A DNA stretch of 64,000 bases from an uncultured Solirubrobacterales bacterium (lineage in GTDB: Bacteria > Actinomycetota > Thermoleophilia > Solirubrobacterales > Solirubrobacteraceae). Position 1 is the stretch's first letter. Every line of letters starts with the position of its first letter. Made by a program: the position numbers and the translations under genes. The stretch spans positions 66,480 to 130,479 of the forward strand of contig CAWCRO010000022.1 of NCBI GenBank assembly GCA_963797955.1, given 5' to 3'. Below, piece by piece: positions 13,706-33,792 of the stretch. The notes under the pieces were generated by a model. The model saw only the letters and a program-made list of their open reading frames with translations. It had not been told where the DNA came from and ran no database searches.

Positions 13706-14929
13706 GTGATTGGTGCGCGACGGAGGTCGAGGCTGGACTTGGGCGGTCTGCTGGCCGCGGTTGAGAATGCGCCGCCGGTCGCAGCCGCCGATGTCGTCGC
13801 GGAGCTGCTCGCGGACACGTTGGCAGCGTCTGAGGTGGCGTTCCTCATCGCGGACTTCAGCGGCGATGCCCTGATCCGGCTGAGCCATACCGCGGCGCCG
13901 GCGAGGAGCATTTCGGGCGCAGAGGTCGCTGAGCCGGTGCCCTTGGACGGGAGTGCGCATGGTCAGGTGCTCGCTGCCCAGGCAGTCCGCGTTGACGAAG
14001 AGGGCGGCAGTTGGCGGGTGCTCGCTCCAGTGACCAACCGCGGGGAAGCCATCGGTGTGCTGGAACTCCTGCTGGCTGACGAGCCAGACGAGCAGTGCCT
14101 TGCTGACGTTGCGCTGGCCGCGCACGCGCTCGCATATGTCGTTATTGCCAACCGCCGGTTCACGGATCTGTTTGAGTGGGGGCAGCGCTCTGTCCCACTG
14201 TCGCTGGCCGCTGAGATCCAGCATCGCCTGCTTCCGGCGGCCTATACCTGCGAAGCGGGTCAGTTCTCGCTGGCTGCGTGGTTAGAGCCGGCCGGGAACA
14301 TCGCGGGAGACACGTTTGACTTCTCTTTGGAGCGCGACGTCTTGCATCTCTCGATGACCGACGCGATGGGACATTCGGTGCAAGCGGCGATGCTGGCAAC
14401 GGTGTTGGTCGGCGCGCTTCGGAACGGTAGACGCGTGGGTGTCGACTTGGCCGAGCAGGCGCGCCTGGCCAGCGTCGGCCTCGCCGAGCAGTTCCACCGC
14501 TGCGAATACGTCACGGGGCAGCTGGTCCGGGTCGACCTGCGAACCGGGATAGCGGAGATCGTCAACGCCGGACACCCACCCCCTCTGCGCCTGCGCGACG
14601 GGCGTGTCACCTCGGTGGATCTCAAGGCGGACCTCCCGTTCGCGTGGGGCGAGCACGATTACCGAGTGCAGCCGCTGGAGCTTGCGCCAGGCGACCGGCT
14701 GGTGTTCCTCACCGACGGCATGCTAGAGCGAAACGCCTCCAGCCTGGACATCGAGGCGCTGGTCGCCCAAGGCGCGCAGATGCACTCCCGCCAAGCGGTG
14801 CAGCATCTCATCCGAGCGGTCCTCAAAGGCACCGGAGGCCAGCTCAAGGACGACGCGGCCGTGATGTGCCTCGACTGGCACGGCGGCTCCCCCCGCCTGC
14901 GGGCAAGCGACTCCGGCGCCGACCGCTAA
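13706..14929 (+). CDS. RsbU/SpoIIE-type PP2C Ser phosphatase with GAF-like N-terminal domain
   Basis: SLAAEIQHRLLP, AGDTFD, MTDAMGHS, NAGHPPP, LVFLTDGMLE, KDDAAVMCL. Confidence 0.9.
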   Translation: MIGARRRSRLDLGGLLAAVENAPPVAAADVVAELLADTLAASEVAFLIADFSGDALIRLSHTAAPARSISGAEVAEPVPLDGSAHGQVLAAQAVRVDEEGGSWRVLAPVTNRGEAIGVLELLLADEPDEQCLADVALAAHALAYVVIANRRFTDLFEWGQRSVPLSLAAEIQHRLLPAAYTCEAGQFSLAAWLEPAGNIAGDTFDFSLERDVLHLSMTDAMGHSVQAAMLATVLVGALRNGRRVGVDLAEQARLASVGLAEQFHRCEYVTGQLVRVDLRTGIAEIVNAGHPPPLRLRDGRVTSVDLKADLPFAWGEHDYRVQPLELAPGDRLVFLTDGMLERNASSLDIEALVAQGAQMHSRQAVQHLIRAVLKGTGGQLKDDAAVMCLDWHGGSPRLRASDSGADR

Positions 14930-25914: not shown

Positions 25915-27315
25915 TTAGGGTCCTGGCGGCGACGGGGCCAGGCAAGCCGCCAGCGCGGCCGGGAAGGTCGTCGACTTGCGTTGAGTGGGCACGCAGTTGT
26001 CGATCTCGAGCCCCATCAGCGCGTTGCCGAGCTGGGTCATCGTGTCGGCGTTCTGGAAGGCGTCCGCCGGCTTGGTCTCGGCTGGGAAGTCGACGCCGTC
26101 TTTGGGGAGCCCGAGCCAGTGGTAGGTCTCGTGGATCAGCACGTCTGAGCGGCAGTGCCGGCTCGAGTCATACCAGGTCGGATCGCAGAGCTGCGTGCCG
26201 ATCGGGCTGCACGTGCCGGGGGCGCATGTGGCAGCGAAGTTTTGGCCGGGGCCGGGGTCGCAGAAGCCGTGGGCGGTCGAGCGGAACGTGAGCGGTTGGA
26301 CCGGTGAGGTGAGGTCTTTGTGAACGAGTTCGCGGGCCTTCCCCAGCGTGTCGAAATAGTCCGGGTCCTCGGGCCTGGCGTGGAGAAAGAACCGGACGAC
26401 GCACACCTCGCGCGGGAACGAAGCGGCGACCGACGGCTGCGGGCCCTCGCCCGGCTGCCACAGACTGGCTGCCAGAACCACGTTTTGCATGTCGGCGAGC
26501 CGCCCCTCGATTGCCCGCAGCTGGTGGCGCCGGTCGTCAAAGGCGTCCTTATGCTTTTGATCGTCCGGAGTGATCGGCGGCGGCGAGGGTGGAGGTGGCG
26601 TCGGTGTGGGCGCGCCGCCGGGGAATAGCTCGTTGAGCCGTCGCATGGTGCCAGGGCCGACGTCACCGAACTCCTCGAACCCGAGGTGCTCGGCCGCCTT
26701 GAACGCCCTCACGGCCGCCGCGGTCCTCGGCCCGTAGACCCCGTCGACGCCGTTACCGGCGGGTCCGGTGCCACCGAGGTCAAAGCCGCGGTCGACCAGC
26801 GCCTGCTGCACCTTGCTGACCGGCTGATGCTCGACGGTGTCGCGCGCACCCGCCCCCATCCTCGACTTGTCCTCCAGGCAAGCCTCGAGCAGCGGTTCGC
26901 CGACAAAGCGGGGGGAAGTGAGTGTTTGGCGCGCGAGCACCCGCCGCTCACGGCCACCCGCTGACGCAGAGCCAGCGCGATCCGGCCGGGCCGCGACGGC
27001 CCGTCGAAGCTGCCGGCCCATCTCGGCCGTCCACTCATCCTCCGCCCGCGCCTGTCCGCAGGCGCCACCACACTTGCACGCACCCGGGCACCGCGCAAGG
27101 GTCGGCGACGCGATCCGCGGGCCTCTCCACGCAGCCTGCGCGACGACGGCGGCTCGGTTGCCGGCGGAGGCCTGCAGCGCGAGGATTGACTGGCGGCCGA
27201 TCCGCGCATCCCGCGGCCCAGCGCTCGTCCCGATCGCCGTCACAGGTGACGGTCGTACCTGCCTTGATGACCGGACGTCGTTTTGCGGCGTCGGCACGAG
27301 GACATGCTGACCCAC
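25915..27315 (-). CDS. Peptidoglycan-binding domain protein with C-terminal HEXXH (M35/aspzincin-like) domain
   Basis: VSKVQQALVDRG...VDGVYGPRTAAAVRAFK; LIHETYHWLG..KD...NADT; N-terminal LALQASAGNRAA and LARCPGACKCGG. Confidence 0.75.
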   Translation of the reverse strand: MGQHVLVPTPQNDVRSSRQVRPSPVTAIGTSAGPRDARIGRQSILALQASAGNRAAVVAQAAWRGPRIASPTLARCPGACKCGGACGQARAEDEWTAEMGRQLRRAVAARPDRAGSASAGGRERRVLARQTLTSPRFVGEPLLEACLEDKSRMGAGARDTVEHQPVSKVQQALVDRGFDLGGTGPAGNGVDGVYGPRTAAAVRAFKAAEHLGFEEFGDVGPGTMRRLNELFPGGAPTPTPPPPSPPPITPDDQKHKDAFDDRRHQLRAIEGRLADMQNVVLAASLWQPGEGPQPSVAASFPREVCVVRFFLHARPEDPDYFDTLGKARELVHKDLTSPVQPLTFRSTAHGFCDPGPGQNFAATCAPGTCSPIGTQLCDPTWYDSSRHCRSDVLIHETYHWLGLPKDGVDFPAETKPADAFQNADTMTQLGNALMGLEIDNCVPTQRKSTTFPAALAACLAPSPPGP

Positions 27316-27415
27316 ACAACCACTATCTCAGAAGCCTGGGATGCGGACAACCTGTCCACCGCCCCGAACGGTCTCGGGATGACGTTCCATGACACGACGC
27401 GCGGACCGTCGGTGT

Positions 27416-31042: not shown

Positions 31043-32512
31043 TCAGTCGGAGGGACCGATCATGCCGCTGGGGGCGAGCACGATGATTGTGGAGTCGTCG
31101 TCGAGCTGGTCGGGGTTGGCGACTCGCAGCTGGTCTTCGATGGCTCGCAGCGTGGCGGGTGCCGCGTTGTTGTCGGCCTTGGCGACTGCGCGTGCTATCG
31201 CTGAGAGCCCGAGGCCGTGGGTCGGATGGGTGAAGCTGTCGGAGAGGAGCAGCAGTCGTTCGGTCTTATCCAGGCGGGTTTCGTTGGTGTGGGGCTGGTC
31301 GGGGAAGTCACGGCTTCCCAGGGGCGGGTGTAGGAGGCCGTCGAGGGGCTTGAGCTGGCCGCGGGCGGTGATGCGAAATGGGGGCTCGTCGCCGGCGGTG
31401 ACCCAGCGAAACGTCGAGGCGGGGGCGTTCCAGTGTCCGATTGTGGCTGTCGAGGTGGCTGCGCCGTCGCCGATCTCCAGCAGCACCTCATGCATCGCCA
31501 GCAGACATTCGGCGGGATCGATCGCGTCGCGGCGGACGGAGCGAAACGCCCCGAGGGTGACGGCGCTGATGCCGGCGGCGGCCGCTCCTGTCCCATCGGA
31601 GTCCGCAATCCCGATCCAGGTGCCGCGGGGGTTTTCGGTGTAGTCGAACCAGTCTCCGCCGATCTCATATCCGGGGAGGACGTTGCCGGCGAGGGTCGCG
31701 CCGCCGACGCGCGCGATTCGGGGGGGCAAGAGGTTCTGCTGGATTTCGGCGGCCGGGCTGGTCTTCCGGGTCCGGCGGACCGTATCGATGTGATCGCTGT
31801 AGGCGGGCGCGAGAGCTAGTGCGATGGCGGCTTCGGAGGCGAGGTCGCGCAGCTGGTCGCTGACTGTCCCGACGGCCAGCAGTACCCCGATCGCACGGCC
31901 GCGCAACTGCAGCGGAGCGACGGTCGCGCCGGGTAGCAGTTCCTCAAAGACGGCCCGGATGGCGGCCACGCCCTCGCGTGGAATCTCCGGGCCGACGGCC
32001 AGCGGCGCGGTGATCTGAGCGGGGAAAGTCGCGGCGCCGGCGAGACGCTGCATGCTGGCTCCGTCGAGATCGACGACGTACAGGGCGGCGGAGGAAATGC
32101 CTGGCAGACGTTGGGCCTCGGCGACGATCTGGTCTCCGAGTTGAAACGGCGGGACTTTGTTGAGCACGTCGGCGACCGAGAGCGGAGTGGTGGTGACGCT
32201 GGCCAGCTCGCCCGGAGGACGCAGGTAGTCCTCCTCGTCAGAGTCGGCGTCGTCCCGCGCCTGGCGGCGCACCGCGTCCATGAGCTCGTCGCGGGTGGGG
32301 AAGTGTCGGTGCACCGTGCCCCGTCCCAGCCCCGCCTTTGCGGCGATTGCCCGCATGCTGGTGTCTTCGTTATCGGCCAGCGCCCTCCGAGCAGCGTCGA
32401 TGATCTTCGCGCGGTTCAGCGCTGCGTCGCTGCGCAGGCGACGCTCTGGAGCGGCTTCACCCACGCGGACTGCGCCGGCGTCCTCATCGCGAAATGGAAC
32501 ACTCTGACTCAC
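31043..32512 (-). CDS. TetR-HTH / GAF-like / PP2C (SpoIIE) fusion protein
   Basis: RSDAALNRAKIIDAA...SMRAIAAKAGLGRGTVHRHFPTRDEL; AAEIQQNLLP, GGDWFD, IADSDGTG, LLSDSF, DDDSTIIVL in one ORF. Confidence 0.88.
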   Translation of the reverse strand: MSQSVPFRDEDAGAVRVGEAAPERRLRSDAALNRAKIIDAARRALADNEDTSMRAIAAKAGLGRGTVHRHFPTRDELMDAVRRQARDDADSDEEDYLRPPGELASVTTTPLSVADVLNKVPPFQLGDQIVAEAQRLPGISSAALYVVDLDGASMQRLAGAATFPAQITAPLAVGPEIPREGVAAIRAVFEELLPGATVAPLQLRGRAIGVLLAVGTVSDQLRDLASEAAIALALAPAYSDHIDTVRRTRKTSPAAEIQQNLLPPRIARVGGATLAGNVLPGYEIGGDWFDYTENPRGTWIGIADSDGTGAAAAGISAVTLGAFRSVRRDAIDPAECLLAMHEVLLEIGDGAATSTATIGHWNAPASTFRWVTAGDEPPFRITARGQLKPLDGLLHPPLGSRDFPDQPHTNETRLDKTERLLLLSDSFTHPTHGLGLSAIARAVAKADNNAAPATLRAIEDQLRVANPDQLDDDSTIIVLAPSGMIGPSD

Positions 32513-32712
32513 TTAGTAGGCCTCAGAAGCATTTTCGTCCCACATGTCCACCCTCTTCATTTGCTCTACTATCTGCGCGAACAGTACATCTTACACAGAT
32601 AACTAGAACACATTGTCCGATTTAGGATAGCGGCGGTGAGGACGGAGCGCTGGATTGCGGTTTTTGATCGTCGCTTACCTGCCGCTACGCCGCGACGACG
32701 AAGAGAGACGAC

Positions 32713-33792
32713 ATGTCCAGTACAGCCGCAGGTGACGGCGAGCCGCGAGCCGCCGCGCCCACCGCCCACGACGGGACGAACCAGCCAGCGGGGACCGCGG
32801 CGCTGTCCGCACCCGATGGCGCTGATCAACGGCGTTCTGGGCGGCGGCCCGAGGGGCCGGCTCACGCTCGCGAGGGGTCGGCGCTGCACACCCTCAAGCG
32901 CACATGGGCCGAGTTCTCTGAGGACAATCTCACCGATTCGGCGGCCGCGCTGACCTATTACGCGATCCTCTCGATCTTCCCGGCGCTCCTGGCGCTGGTG
33001 GCGATCGTGGGGCTCGTCGCCGATCCGCACACGGTCACGAAGGAGATGACCACGCTCGTCACCTCGATCGGTCCCGCGTCGGCCGCTCAGACGTTCAAGG
33101 GTCCGATCGAGGGTCTGACGAAGAGCAGCGGCACCGCGGGCATCTTGCTGATCGTGGGTATCGCGTCGGCACTGTGGACGGCCTCGGGGTATGTCGGGGC
33201 GTTCATGCGAGCCTCCAACGTGATCTACGAGGTGGAGGAGGGTCGCTCGATCATCAAGCTGCGCCCCCTGCAGATGCTGGTCACGCTCGTCCTCGTCATT
33301 CTGCTCGCGCTGGTACTCGTGGCCTTGGTGCTGACCGGTCCGCTGGCCAGCAAGGTCGGCTCCGCAGTGGGCATCGGCAGCTCGGCGGTGACGGTGTGGA
33401 ACATCGCCAAATGGCCAGTGCTGCTGGTCGTGGTGATGTTCATGATCGCGCTTCTGTATTACGCGTCACCGAACGCCAAGCTGCGGAGTCTGAAGTCGAT
33501 CTTTCCCGGAGCGGTTCTGGCCGTCGTCGTATGGCTGGTGGCGTCCGCTGCGTTTGCTTTTTACGTGGCGAACTTCGGGTCCTATAACAAGACCTACGGC
33601 ACCTTGGGCGGAATCATCGTGTTCCTGGTGTGGATGTGGATCACCAACGTGGCGATCCTCCTCGGCGCTGAGATCAACGCCGAACGCGAACGCTCCCGCC
33701 AACTGCGCGACGGAGCCCCCGGCGCCGAACGCGAGATCCAACTTGCGGAACGCTCAGAGCCCAAAGCCAAGAAGCGCGCCCGGACTGTCTGA
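32713..33792 (+). CDS. YihY/virulence factor BrkB family membrane protein
   Basis: SAAALTYYAILSIFP, ALWTASGY, LYYASPN, YNKTYGTLGGIIVFLVWMW, LLGAEIN. Confidence 0.93.
   Translation: MSSTAAGDGEPRAAAPTAHDGTNQPAGTAALSAPDGADQRRSGRRPEGPAHAREGSALHTLKRTWAEFSEDNLTDSAAALTYYAILSIFPALLALVAIVGLVADPHTVTKEMTTLVTSIGPASAAQTFKGPIEGLTKSSGTAGILLIVGIASALWTASGYVGAFMRASNVIYEVEEGRSIIKLRPLQMLVTLVLVILLALVLVALVLTGPLASKVGSAVGIGSSAVTVWNIAKWPVLLVVVMFMIALLYYASPNAKLRSLKSIFPGAVLAVVVWLVASAAFAFYVANFGSYNKTYGTLGGIIVFLVWMWITNVAILLGAEINAERERSRQLRDGAPGAEREIQLAERSEPKAKKRARTV

Follow-up and report, generated by a model that had tools for sequence, protein, structure and literature searches.

A soil actinobacterium of the order Solirubrobacterales encodes, within the 64,000-nt stretch of DNA analysed here (the window), a protein of 489 aa that joins a TetR-type DNA-binding head (HTH) to a GAF-fold sensor domain and a PP2C phosphatase domain (31043..32512, minus strand, GTG start). 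Comparison with its homologs marks the fusion as old and conserved. New here are a palindrome kept in orthologs and the divergent general-stress neighbours (PRC/DUF2382, Asp23, Holin-X, YihY, DUF892, and a SigB/F-type sigma factor). Because an old, conserved fusion lies beside this palindrome and these stress genes, the same sensor probably governs promoter binding as well as phosphatase signalling. On balance, we lean towards a one-component regulator with two outputs that serves a general-stress module, with operator-binding TetR heads and a sigma-switching PP2C domain.

Domain layout and catalytic residues of the fusion protein

The gene had been described from its letters as a single unbroken reading frame; the frame is indeed intact, and the choice of start codon is backed by the N-terminus MSQSVPF, which is kept in orthologs. 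The AF2 model of the full-length monomer (pLDDT 84) consists, in order, of four HTH helices (residues 24-97), a low-confidence stretch (90-109), an alpha/beta domain (113-237), and a PP2C sandwich (about 262-481). Pfam, profile searches, and AF2 together delimit the head to residues 24-97, helices a1-a4 (32222..32443, minus strand). Pfam TetR_N covers residues 37-81 with its complete model (32270-32404, minus strand; PF00440, E 1.9e-10, model positions 1-47 of 47), profile searches match more than 50 solved TetR regulators (best E 5e-14), and the head helices are modeled at pLDDT 84-90. Four HTH residues, A57, R64, T66, and R69, are invariant among 58 aligned sequences. What defines the TetR family is a rigid helical core, through which ligand binding controls the distance between the two heads; as dimers, its members bind a palindromic operator, mostly close to their own gene. 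In the fusion protein, as the preliminary description had claimed, the head comes without the all-helical TetR_C ligand/dimerisation core (a4-a9 of the family): no Pfam TetR_C model matches, and in the AF2 model the chain runs on from a4 through a linker of low confidence into an alpha/beta GAF domain and from there into PP2C.

The linker is acidic (residues 90-112, DDADSDEEDYLRPPGEL...; 32177..32245, minus strand; placed by AF2 confidence and alignment). Although approximately 20 of its residues are modeled with low confidence (pLDDT below 50 at residues 90-109), it is 81% conserved inside the clade. Beyond it, the sensor domain (residues 113-237; 31802..32176, minus strand) was assigned from a fragment model combined with Foldseek. 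Folded alone, the fragment reaches pLDDT 78, and its best Foldseek matches are GAF domains (3k2n, 3cit, and DevS GAF-B; E 3e-5 to 1e-2, TM 0.5-0.6), consistent with the antiparallel sheet and flanking helices of this fold; IclR structures are also among the matches. The GAF_3 profile reaches only E 0.075, under the Pfam cut-off, and a single relative attains GAF at 5e-4, so that the GAF-like region proposed earlier is supported by its fold, while its sequence stays short of the threshold. Between GAF and PP2C, a connector of helices (residues 238-261; 31730..31801, minus strand; AF2 helices 219-237, 241-246, and 253-261) is the best-conserved segment across clades, with identities of 0.87, 0.63, and 0.48 in the three clade groups.

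The PP2C domain is of the SpoIIE/RsbU PPM type (residues 262-481; 31070..31729, minus strand), defined by Pfam PF07228 and Foldseek. The SpoIIE model matches residues 296-479 (E 8.5e-20), in agreement with the phosphatase assignment made previously, and the fold matches SpoIIE, RssB, Rv1364c, SiaA, and RsbX (structures 5ucg, 3f79, 3ke6, 6k4e, and 3w40; E of about 1e-11 to 1e-9). The metal-ligand motifs of group-II PPM phosphatases (GGDxxD, D-x-x-G-x-G, (T/S)DG, and DD-x-T) are represented, all on the minus strand, by GGDWFD (residues 285-290; 31643-31660), ADSDG (303-307; 31592-31606), SDSF (424-427; 31232-31243), and DDDST (471-475; 31088-31102). The metal-binding aspartates reported as retained are all present (D287, D290, D304, D425, D472, and D473), and the two motifs singled out as divergent, ADSDG and SDSF, are found at the places quoted. 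Across the alignment, D290, D304, and D473 occur in 58/58 sequences and D425 and D472 in 57/58; D287 is kept in 44/58 and replaced by N in the other 14, and N is the residue of the Paraconexibacter-type clade. Since the active-site columns are the most conserved of the whole protein over 35-100% identity, the earlier suggestion of a phosphatase fold reused as a sensor is disfavoured. The query subclade, however, carries SDS where (S/T)DG is near-universal (G426 replaced by S in 12/58), lacks the ER(R) that follows, and has a low SpoIIE score (72 bits for the fusion protein, approximately half that of its paralogs), and catalysis may for these reasons be reduced or altered.

The window also holds a headless GAF-PP2C paralog of 407 aa (13706..14929, plus strand; SpoIIE E 2.4e-37). 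It had been called conventional, which is borne out by the missing HTH and by 30% identity to the fusion protein over residues 117-479. In the tree it is a long-branch outlier outside the HTH-bearing clade and served as the drawing root. It shows the ancestral architecture and lies outside the regulatory unit; the palindrome discussed below is absent upstream of it.

Age and distribution of the fusion

More than 1,400 homologs were found, and among the best 120 all but two shorter proteins (P0109 and P0114, of 413 and 396 aa) combine TetR_N with SpoIIE. At least three deep clades (35-90% identity), all within the Solirubrobacterales, keep the same architecture, and those at 35-45% identity include cultured Paraconexibacter, among them C7Y72_10175 of Paraconexibacter algicola and DSM112329_04162 of Paraconexibacter sp. 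AEG42_29. The 24 full-length loci come from independent MAG assemblies, and Paraconexibacter isolate genomes add to these. The domain-architecture check proposed at the outset therefore returned the combination from many independent assemblies and several deep clades, contradicting the possibility, raised in the preliminary description, of an architecture without homologs or a chimeric assembly.

In the tree, headless GAF-PP2C proteins surround a single clade (support 99/99) that takes in every HTH-bearing protein, a pattern indicating that the head was gained once, long ago. Identities inside the clade are 0.80 for the HTH, 0.86 for GAF, and 0.72 for PP2C; together with the invariant positions at each end, these values imply that the HTH and PP2C ends are both under selection. 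The distribution is patchy, with a match in 21/81 genomes of the family and none in the genome of the same genus, and the fusion protein is thus dispensable. One MAG carries three copies of the gene, each with its own stress operon.

The divergent control region and its stress-related neighbours

Upstream, the fusion gene shares a divergent control region of 200 nt (32513..32712) with a gene for a YihY/BrkB-family membrane protein (32713..33792, plus strand; PF03631, E 4e-67). The YihY assignment and the AT-rich character of the intergenic region both agree with the earlier account (51.5% GC vs 67% for the window). A consensus promoter scan of 32400-32800 returned no strict sigma-70 site in the control region, and neither exact inverted repeats nor consensus promoters or terminators were found in the same interval. 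Comparison of orthologous regions yields a candidate operator, a 15-bp imperfect palindrome, AGAACACATTGTCCG (32605..32619); the starts of the TetR-PP2C gene and of yihY are 92 and 93 nt away, respectively. The family consensus is AGAACA-N3-TGTTCT, from which the window copy departs at two positions. In orthologs, the palindrome keeps a distance of 85-98 nt upstream of the gene within intergenic regions that have otherwise diverged. Only this comparison makes the candidate operator visible. Three nucleotides past the palindrome lies a -10-like TAGGAT facing yihY (32623-32628), to which an nAnGAT block beside the palindrome in orthologs probably corresponds, judging from their sequences. In the 50% clade, by comparison, the palindrome directly adjoins a -10-like element in the TetR-PP2C gene's own promoter.

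The pattern RRACA-N3-TGTYY occurs upstream in 17/22 loci vs 2 matches in the other 317 kb (0.025 expected), a count to be read with the pattern's partial derivation from these same loci and with their shared descent, which makes them non-independent. The palindrome recurs in clades of 50-60% identity outside its definition (L074, L075, L078, L034, and L040), and a further locus (L033) has a one-mismatch variant, TGACA-N3-TGTCC, which the stricter RRACA pattern misses. Upstream of HTH-bearing genes, 260 nt contain on average about 1.3 GRGACA half-sites, against a background of 0.13, and zero were found upstream of six headless relatives. Across differing neighbourhoods, the palindrome accompanies the HTH-bearing genes. 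In the own genome the pattern matches 44 times, and the consensus 49 times when up to two mismatches are allowed; nearly all of these sites lie inside coding sequence, so no palindrome regulon can be claimed, and only the window site sits in a low-GC intergenic region. Neither the Asp23 operon of the own genome (C21:889441) nor the Holin-X genes there (C15) have a site upstream. As known boxes, two candidates were considered and rejected. An SOS (LexA/Cheo) box does not fit the spacing, GAAC-N5-GTTC rather than N4, or the many GAGACA and GGGACA copies; a CRP/GlxR-type box, TGTGA-N6-TCACA, differs in spacing and runs in the reverse orientation to ACA-N3-TGT.

In relatives, the gene faces a divergent operon of PRC/DUF2382, Asp23, Holin-X, and YihY. 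In 12 related loci, the divergent stress operon includes a YihY-family gene; genes of this family also adjoin distant TetR-PP2C genes in two loci (L044 and L053) and a headless relative in another (L050). Among the GTDB loci, adjacent genes are PRC/DUF2382 in 9/23, YihY in 3/23, and sigma in 2/23. In the 50% clade, DUF892 and a SigB/F/G-family sigma gene adjoin the fusion gene; the sigma gene, adjacent in L074, L075, and L078, matches TIGR02980 at 232 bits, against a cut-off of 234, and none is present in the window. SigB-type promoters, G[GT]T[TG]-N13-18-GGGTA (consensus from PMC8346170), face the neighbouring operon in six loci, where 0.018 would be expected, and five of the six keep a constant spacing of 28-37 nt to the gene start. 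The list of SigB regulon members in B. subtilis (PMC7824861) includes ysnF and yqhY. The window lacks both the usual stress operon and a SigB-like promoter; only yihY remains, and it is likely the co-regulated target in the own genome. No DUF2382 gene was detected in that genome, which is 93% complete. Partner-switching modules usually encode their STAS anti-anti-sigma factor and anti-sigma kinase close by. No cognate STAS or anti-sigma kinase gene was found within 7 kb in 26 loci, and no other evident substrate gene adjoins the fusion gene in the loci examined. The own genome does contain 12 STAS loci (11 above the Pfam cut-off, the twelfth weaker) as well as several canonical PP2C-STAS-sigma clusters, away from the fusion gene. 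A PADLOC search returned no match that would link the locus to anti-phage defence.

Proposed mechanism, competing explanations, and known systems

As a plausible mechanism, a single GAF sensor would be common to both outputs, DNA binding and phosphatase activity. By analogy with GAF/PAS/REC-PPM phosphatases, in which linker helices cross (the GAF-PPM dimer mechanism of PMC12143880), the GAF-PP2C core is expected to dimerise, and the dimer would then offer two flexibly tethered TetR heads to the AGAACA-N3-TGTTCT palindrome in the gene's divergent control region. Binding of the heads would autoregulate the fusion gene and probably repress the divergent gene or operon, i.e., yihY in the own genome and the PRC/DUF2382-Asp23-Holin-X-YihY stress operon in relatives. 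The PP2C domain would be catalytically active as a Mn2+/Mg2+-dependent Ser/Thr phosphatase like others in the RsbU/SpoIIE class, and its most likely substrate would be a phosphorylated STAS anti-anti-sigma factor of a SigB/F-type partner-switching network. Given the missing TetR core and the flexible-looking tether, it is probably regulated dimerisation or avidity, and not the TetR pendulum, that carries the signal to DNA. The preliminary description had proposed a regulator that links DNA occupancy to partner switching; the palindrome, the catalytic residues, and the stress and SigB/F-type neighbours speak for this proposal, and the absence of an adjacent STAS or anti-sigma gene speaks against it. 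A tightly coupled form, in which GAF-PP2C dimerisation both switches the phosphatase on and builds the two-headed DNA binder, thereby coupling operator occupancy to sigma release, we regard as speculative and unlikely; in a stronger version, the operator DNA itself may template the dimer at the promoter and so activate the phosphatase there.

The protein could instead be purely a transcription factor, its GAF-PP2C part replacing the TetR core and its PP2C domain, a pseudo- or weak phosphatase, serving as a sensor or docking module that would bind a phosphoprotein or a metal, with operator binding as the only output. With TetR_C missing, some other part must dimerise and sense, and transcription factors with an HTH and a GAF-like domain are known (IclR is among the fold matches); the SDS at the DG motif and low SpoIIE score of the query subclade, the D287N change in one clade, and the lack of a substrate gene nearby point the same way. 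We give this explanation a minority chance that deserves attention: a mere sensor would not need all the metal ligands, and yet D290, D304, D473, D425, and D472 persist in at least 57 of the 58 sequences, and the headless sister proteins resemble ordinary GAF-PP2C enzymes. That the protein is essentially a partner-switching phosphatase, whose TetR head tethers it to the nucleoid or a promoter or autoregulates its dosage and leaves the neighbours uncontrolled, would suit a linker so flexible in appearance that one can hardly envisage allosteric coupling to DNA binding, the position of the palindrome against the -10-like element of the own promoter in the 50% clade, and neighbours that vary between loci. 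It is decidedly unlikely in our estimate, because the query-clade palindrome stands at a fixed distance beside a conserved -10-like block that faces the divergent operon, the regulator-plus-operon unit has been duplicated whole in one MAG, and a linker conserved at 0.81 fits a passive tether poorly.

Doubt can also be directed at the palindrome, which might serve an unlinked regulator (LexA-like or CRP/GlxR-like) or be a promoter element while the HTH binds elsewhere or nowhere. The GAAC/GTTC half-sites do resemble the Gram-positive SOS box, and there are the 44 pattern matches in the own genome; we nevertheless consider this very improbable, since the N5 spacing, the GAGACA/GGGACA copies, and the ACA-N3-TGT orientation are unlike SOS or CRP, and the motif tracks HTH-bearing genes, is missing upstream of headless relatives, and otherwise matches mostly in coding sequence. 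As for an assembly chimera or a recent chance fusion of two genes, nothing was found in its favour, and the full-length architecture in independent MAGs and in Paraconexibacter isolates, the intact frame, and the conserved start effectively refute it, leaving it a vanishing probability.

The fusion protein departs from both PPM and TetR rules and has long been kept in a widespread soil lineage. If it does regulate transcription and sigma switching together, it would be a natural case of one sensor with transcriptional and post-translational outputs, would test if dimerisation or avidity alone suffices to regulate a TetR head, and would provide, with regulator, operator, and target operon, an entry into the unstudied general stress response of the Solirubrobacterales. 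If the coupled form were true, it would further define a new TetR-headed class with allostery by avidity rather than by pendulum, and sequence-specific DNA binding would have been shown for a bacterial PPM phosphatase for the first time. Cultured Paraconexibacter carry family members, which makes the model directly testable.

RsbU, RsbP, RsbZ, OsaC, and Rv1364c, all PPM phosphatases with sensor domains, set SigB/F partner switching in motion, and stress-starting bacterial PPM phosphatases in general swap their N-terminal sensors (RsbU-N, PAS, GAF, REC, and HAMP). The fusion protein shares its metal-binding motifs with RsbU/RsbP of B. subtilis, RsbZ of C. difficile (GAF-GAF-PPM), OsaC of S. coelicolor (GAF/PAS-PPM), and Rv1364c of M. 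tuberculosis, the last of which gives the strongest sequence match among solved structures (E 5.5e-15). Like these enzymes, it has an N-terminal GAF domain joined by helices to the phosphatase and a general-stress neighbourhood, with a SigB/F-type sigma factor in some loci. Unlike them, it has a TetR head before GAF, where they have no DNA-binding domain, its subclade carries SDS in place of TDG, and no STAS or anti-sigma gene lies next to it. No DNA-binding domain appears among the PPM sensor domains listed in the general-mechanism paper (PMC12143880), and no relevant description of a TetR-PP2C or HTH-PPM fusion was found in a literature search that was not exhaustive and thus leaves absence unproven.

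The PP2C fold is also tied to general-stress sigma control in RssB, which is among the top fold matches. RssB is a response regulator with a degenerate PP2C domain that acts as an RpoS adaptor, a precedent for this fold used without catalysis. E. coli RssB lacks the catalytic residues, has a receiver domain, and has no HTH, whereas the fusion protein keeps these residues. With TetR, QacR, and KstR, the protein has in common the TetR_N HTH, a gene divergent from its probable target, and a palindrome in the shared intergenic region; in contrast to these regulators, its core a5-a9 is replaced by linker, GAF, and PP2C. The candidate palindrome resembles the operator of KstR, a known TetR-family operator with the motif TnnAACnnGTTnnA (PMC1995591), in its 15-bp geometry and TAGAAC half-site, and differs in inner spacing (AAC-N5-GTT vs N2). 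Finally, regulators of the IclR/CodY type likewise combine a DNA-binding head and a GAF-fold domain for ligands or oligomerisation in one chain; their heads are winged helices and they have no enzymatic output, whereas the GAF domain of the fusion protein would also regulate a phosphatase domain.

Domain architecture and conservation of the regulator

The regulator gene (31043-32512, minus strand) is a single unbroken 489-codon ORF that starts at a GTG, a start we fixed because orthologs open with the same N-terminus, MSQSVPF. The preliminary description had proposed a TetR DNA-binding head lacking the TetR ligand domain, followed by a GAF-like region and a SpoIIE/RsbU phosphatase in a single frame. 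Pfam bears out both ends, with a complete TetR_N helix-turn-helix (HTH) at residues 37-81 (E 1.9e-10), no match to any TetR_C model, and a SpoIIE-type PP2C domain at residues 296-479 (E 8.5e-20). The preliminary description holds throughout with a single reservation, that the GAF assignment stands by fold and not by significant sequence match: GAF_3 is sub-threshold (E 0.075), whereas a separate model of the middle domain (pLDDT 78) finds almost exclusively GAF domains in the PDB (best E 3e-5, TM 0.5-0.6). The AlphaFold2 model of the whole protein, built from 58 homologs (pLDDT 84, pTM 0.73), contains four N-terminal helices (residues 24-97), an acidic segment of low confidence (90-109), then an alpha/beta domain (113-237) followed by connecting helices, and a PP2C sandwich extending to residue 481; its PDB matches are SpoIIE, RssB, Rv1364c, SiaA, and RsbX (E 1e-11 to 1e-9). 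The motifs ADSDG and SDSF, quoted earlier, lie at residues 303-307 and 424-427, together with GGDWFD (285-290) and DDDST (471-475). The conventional paralog is likewise present, as a headless GAF-PP2C protein of 407 aa (13706-14929, plus strand) with 30% identity over residues 117-479.

Over 58 sequences (35-100% identity), the invariant columns concentrate in the HTH recognition region (A57, R64, T66, R69) and the PP2C active site (G285, G286, W288, D290, D304, D473). The former four residues are presumed to align with the DNA-contacting positions of TetR-tetO structures. G307, D425, and D472 are each kept in 57 of the 58 sequences, and residue 287 is D in 44 of them, with N in the other 14. 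By this conservation, the head and the phosphatase ends both look functional. Identity to the regulator within its own clade is 0.80 for the HTH, 0.81 for the linker, 0.86 for GAF, 0.87 for the connector, and 0.72 for PP2C, the helical GAF-PP2C connector being the most conserved segment across clades. In the regulator's subclade (12/58), SDS replaces the near-universal (S/T)DG, the following ER(R) is also missing, and the SpoIIE bit score is roughly half of what its paralogs reach; catalysis is therefore predicted as likely, yet could be altered. The linker DDADSDEEDYLRPPGEL (32177-32245, residues 90-112) is predicted to be disordered, yet its within-clade identity resembles that of the HTH, and a (P/A)G-x-LGR motif is kept in the linker of other clades. 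This acidic segment may be a functional short motif, e.g., for docking or for autoinhibition by DNA mimicry.

Distribution and age of the fusion

The TetR_N-SpoIIE architecture recurs widely. Among 5.8 billion proteins searched, more than 1,400 are relatives, and of the best 120 (66-100% identity) all except two carry both domains, the exceptions, P0109 and P0114, being shorter than the regulator. These 120 come from many independent soil metagenomes and from MAGs labelled as Solirubrobacteraceae or Solirubrobacterales. When 1.8 billion cluster representatives were scanned in full with HMMER, 136 proteins passed E<1e-30; TetR-headed members among them go as low as 36-44% identity, and headless ones, 375-390 aa long, align to residues 110-480 only; two further searches seeded with distant members recovered more TetR_N+SpoIIE clades. 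The cultured Paraconexibacter algicola and Paraconexibacter sp. AEG42_29 encode such proteins, annotated merely as 'hypothetical' or 'HTH tetR-type domain-containing'. Distribution is patchy, with a match in 21 of the 81 family genomes sampled and none in the same-genus genome; the window's genome carries a single copy.

A maximum-likelihood tree built on the GAF-PP2C core groups the HTH-bearing proteins, all 22 of them, in one clade (support 99/99) nested among headless proteins. Two headless rows also belong to this clade: P0183, a probable truncated call that starts with the first position of the core, and P0146, which may reflect secondary loss of the head. The single nested clade points to one old gain of the TetR head followed by diversification. 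The fusion is old and no artefact, an explanation to which we leave a very small probability.

Among the relatives, one Solirubrobacteraceae MAG (CAWJUE, contigs 1 and 6) has three paralogous genes (L063, L064, L072), two of them 26 kb apart on the same contig. Proteins of about 700 aa (P0133, P0415, P0416, L046) carry some 200 extra residues between the TetR head and the GAF-PP2C core, with a PAS_4 match in one, and P0169 has REC+GGDEF ahead of the same core.

Candidate operator and the divergent stress operon

As the preliminary description had noted, a divergent YihY/BrkB membrane protein gene (32713-33792) faces the regulator across an AT-rich spacer (200 nt, 51.5% GC vs 67% for the window). 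Exact-repeat and consensus scans of this spacer detected nothing. An alignment of the sequences upstream of the gene at 18 orthologous loci exposed a single conserved island amid diverged sequence, a 15-bp palindrome with the consensus AGAACA-N3-TGTTCT, in longer form T-RRR-ACA-N3-TGT-YYY-A, which invariably lies 85-98 nt ahead of the regulator start codon. The window copy, AGAACACATTGTCCG (32605-32619), is separated from the regulator start by 92 nt and from the yihY start by 93 nt. In 17/22 loci, which are related by descent and partly supplied the pattern, RRACA-N3-TGTYY lies no more than 160 nt upstream of the regulator gene; the remaining 317 kb of these loci contain just 2 matches in total (0.025 expected). 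Clades outside the definition set also have it upstream: the ~50% identical clade (L074, L075, L078), with a perfect GAGACAGACTGTCTC in L075, and L034 (52% identity) and L040 (44%). L033 (60%) has a one-mismatch variant, TGACA-N3-TGTCC, detected solely with a looser ACA-N3-TGT scan.

In the ~50% clade the palindrome adjoins a -10-like TAGGAT or TACGAT of the regulator's own promoter. In the window, TAGGAT lies 3 nt past the palindrome (32623-32628, plus strand), and orthologs have an nAnGAT block at the same spacing; we infer a housekeeping-type -10 of the divergent gene, with the candidate operator over its spacer/-35 region. The ~50% clade also has several extra direct GAGAC(A/G) half-sites in a row, ~60-110 nt upstream of the regulator start, an array that suggests cooperative or multi-dimer binding. 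More distant paralog clades have repeated GGGACA/TGTCCC half-sites. Upstream of HTH-bearing genes, GRGACA half-sites average ~1.3 per 260 nt (background 0.13), and none occurs upstream of six headless relatives, one of them the window's own paralog. An SOS box was ruled out by the N5 rather than N4 spacing and the variable GAGACA/GGGACA halves, and a CRP-type site was also rejected. A palindrome search of the window's genome gave no credible regulon: nearly all of the 44 matches are within coding sequence, and the window site is the only one in a low-GC intergenic region. The short pattern occurs three times in the 64-kb window (11427, 27345, 32606) vs ~0.5 expected. The perfect GGACA-ACC-TGTCC at 27345-27357, ~30 nt upstream of the start (27315) of a PG-binding/peptidase-like gene (25915-27315, minus strand), could be chance or a second operator.

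Clustering the ORFs in seven-kb flanks of 24 related loci, the window, and contig L009 revealed a conserved operon upstream of, and divergent from, the regulator, encoding PRC-barrel/DUF2382, Asp23, two small membrane proteins, Holin-X (PF07332), DUF4235, and YihY/BrkB. In 23 further GTDB loci, seen with 1.5-kb flanks only, PRC/DUF2382 adjoins the regulator in 9, YihY does so in 3, and a sigma factor in 2. Loci of the ~50% clade have, on the divergent side, a sigma factor of the SigB/F/G family (TIGR02980, 232 bits vs a cut-off of 234) and a DUF892 protein. Each of the three CAWJUE copies has its own divergent PRC/DUF2382-Asp23 operon, which argues that regulator and operon form one unit, duplicated whole in that MAG. 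In B. subtilis, ysnF and yqhY are presumably a DUF2382 and an Asp23-family gene, respectively, and a control match in that species agrees. Both are on its SigB regulon list (PMC7824861). A SigB-type promoter, G[GT]T[TG]-N13-18-GGGTA, its consensus as in S. coelicolor and B. subtilis (PMC8346170), is directed at the divergent operon in six loci (background expectation 0.018 per region), 28-37 nt from the regulator start in five; more loci match with the -35 relaxed to GNNT.

The window's genome is a reduced case of this arrangement: yihY is the sole operon member left beside the regulator, the locus has no GGGTA promoter, and a DUF2382 gene could not be detected in the assembly, which is 93% complete. 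Its Asp23 and Holin-X/DUF4235 genes are distant from the regulator and have no palindrome; candidate SigB/F-like promoters precede the Asp23 operon (GGTTGT-N-GGGCAA, contig C21:889380-889440) and the Holin-X/DUF4235 genes (GGATTGG-N-GGGTAA, C15:36640-36680). Twelve STAS loci (11 over the Pfam cut-off) are present, as are several canonical partner-switching clusters of PP2C with STAS and sigma (C17:46073-49046; C21:141-153 kb; C7:10156-11271), one with an 821-aa protein that fuses PP2C and STAS. None of these STAS loci or clusters is linked to the regulator gene.

Proposed dual-output model and comparison with known systems

PPM phosphatases of the GAF, PAS, REC, and RsbU-N types dimerize via crossing linker helices, and regulated dimerization switches them (PMC12143880). 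Given such dimers, the conserved connector, and the absent TetR core, we propose that one GAF sensor drives both a DNA-binding and a phosphatase output, a model we consider somewhat better than evenly probable. The GAF-PP2C core would supply the dimer, and two flexibly tethered TetR heads would bind the palindrome, so that the regulator gene would control itself and the divergent gene or operon would probably be repressed; the same sensor would gate the phosphatase. The most likely substrate would be a phospho-STAS anti-anti-sigma factor, the weakest step since no STAS locus or cluster is linked to the gene.

A pure transcription factor whose PP2C domain serves as the sensor we regard as unlikely, at roughly one chance in five; the divergent SDSF motif speaks for it and the invariant active-site residues speak against it. 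A phosphatase whose TetR head merely autoregulates or tethers it is less probable; the palindrome next to the regulator's own promoter in the ~50% clade favours it, and the duplication of regulator and operon as one unit in CAWJUE counts against it. That the palindrome belongs to another factor is slightly more doubtful again, half-sites being enriched upstream of HTH-bearing genes and absent upstream of the headless relatives.

Compared with known systems, the regulator is predicted to work like the GAF-PPM stress phosphatases RsbZ, OsaC, and Rv1364c, but their linked STAS/anti-sigma partners are missing from its locus. Like TetR repressors, it is encoded divergently from its probable target, although the defining TetR core is missing. 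Its palindrome has the 15-bp geometry of classical TetR operators; the TAGAAC half-site is similar to the KstR motif TnnAACnnGTTnnA (PMC1995591), but the inner spacing differs. Our literature search found no paper on a TetR-PPM or other HTH-PPM fusion, and public annotations of the relatives are generic. HTH-plus-GAF logic is known from IclR and CodY, which share it with this regulator but have no enzyme attached. On the proposed model, the regulator is a case, open to direct test, in which DNA binding and phosphatase activity would both be driven by one sensor.
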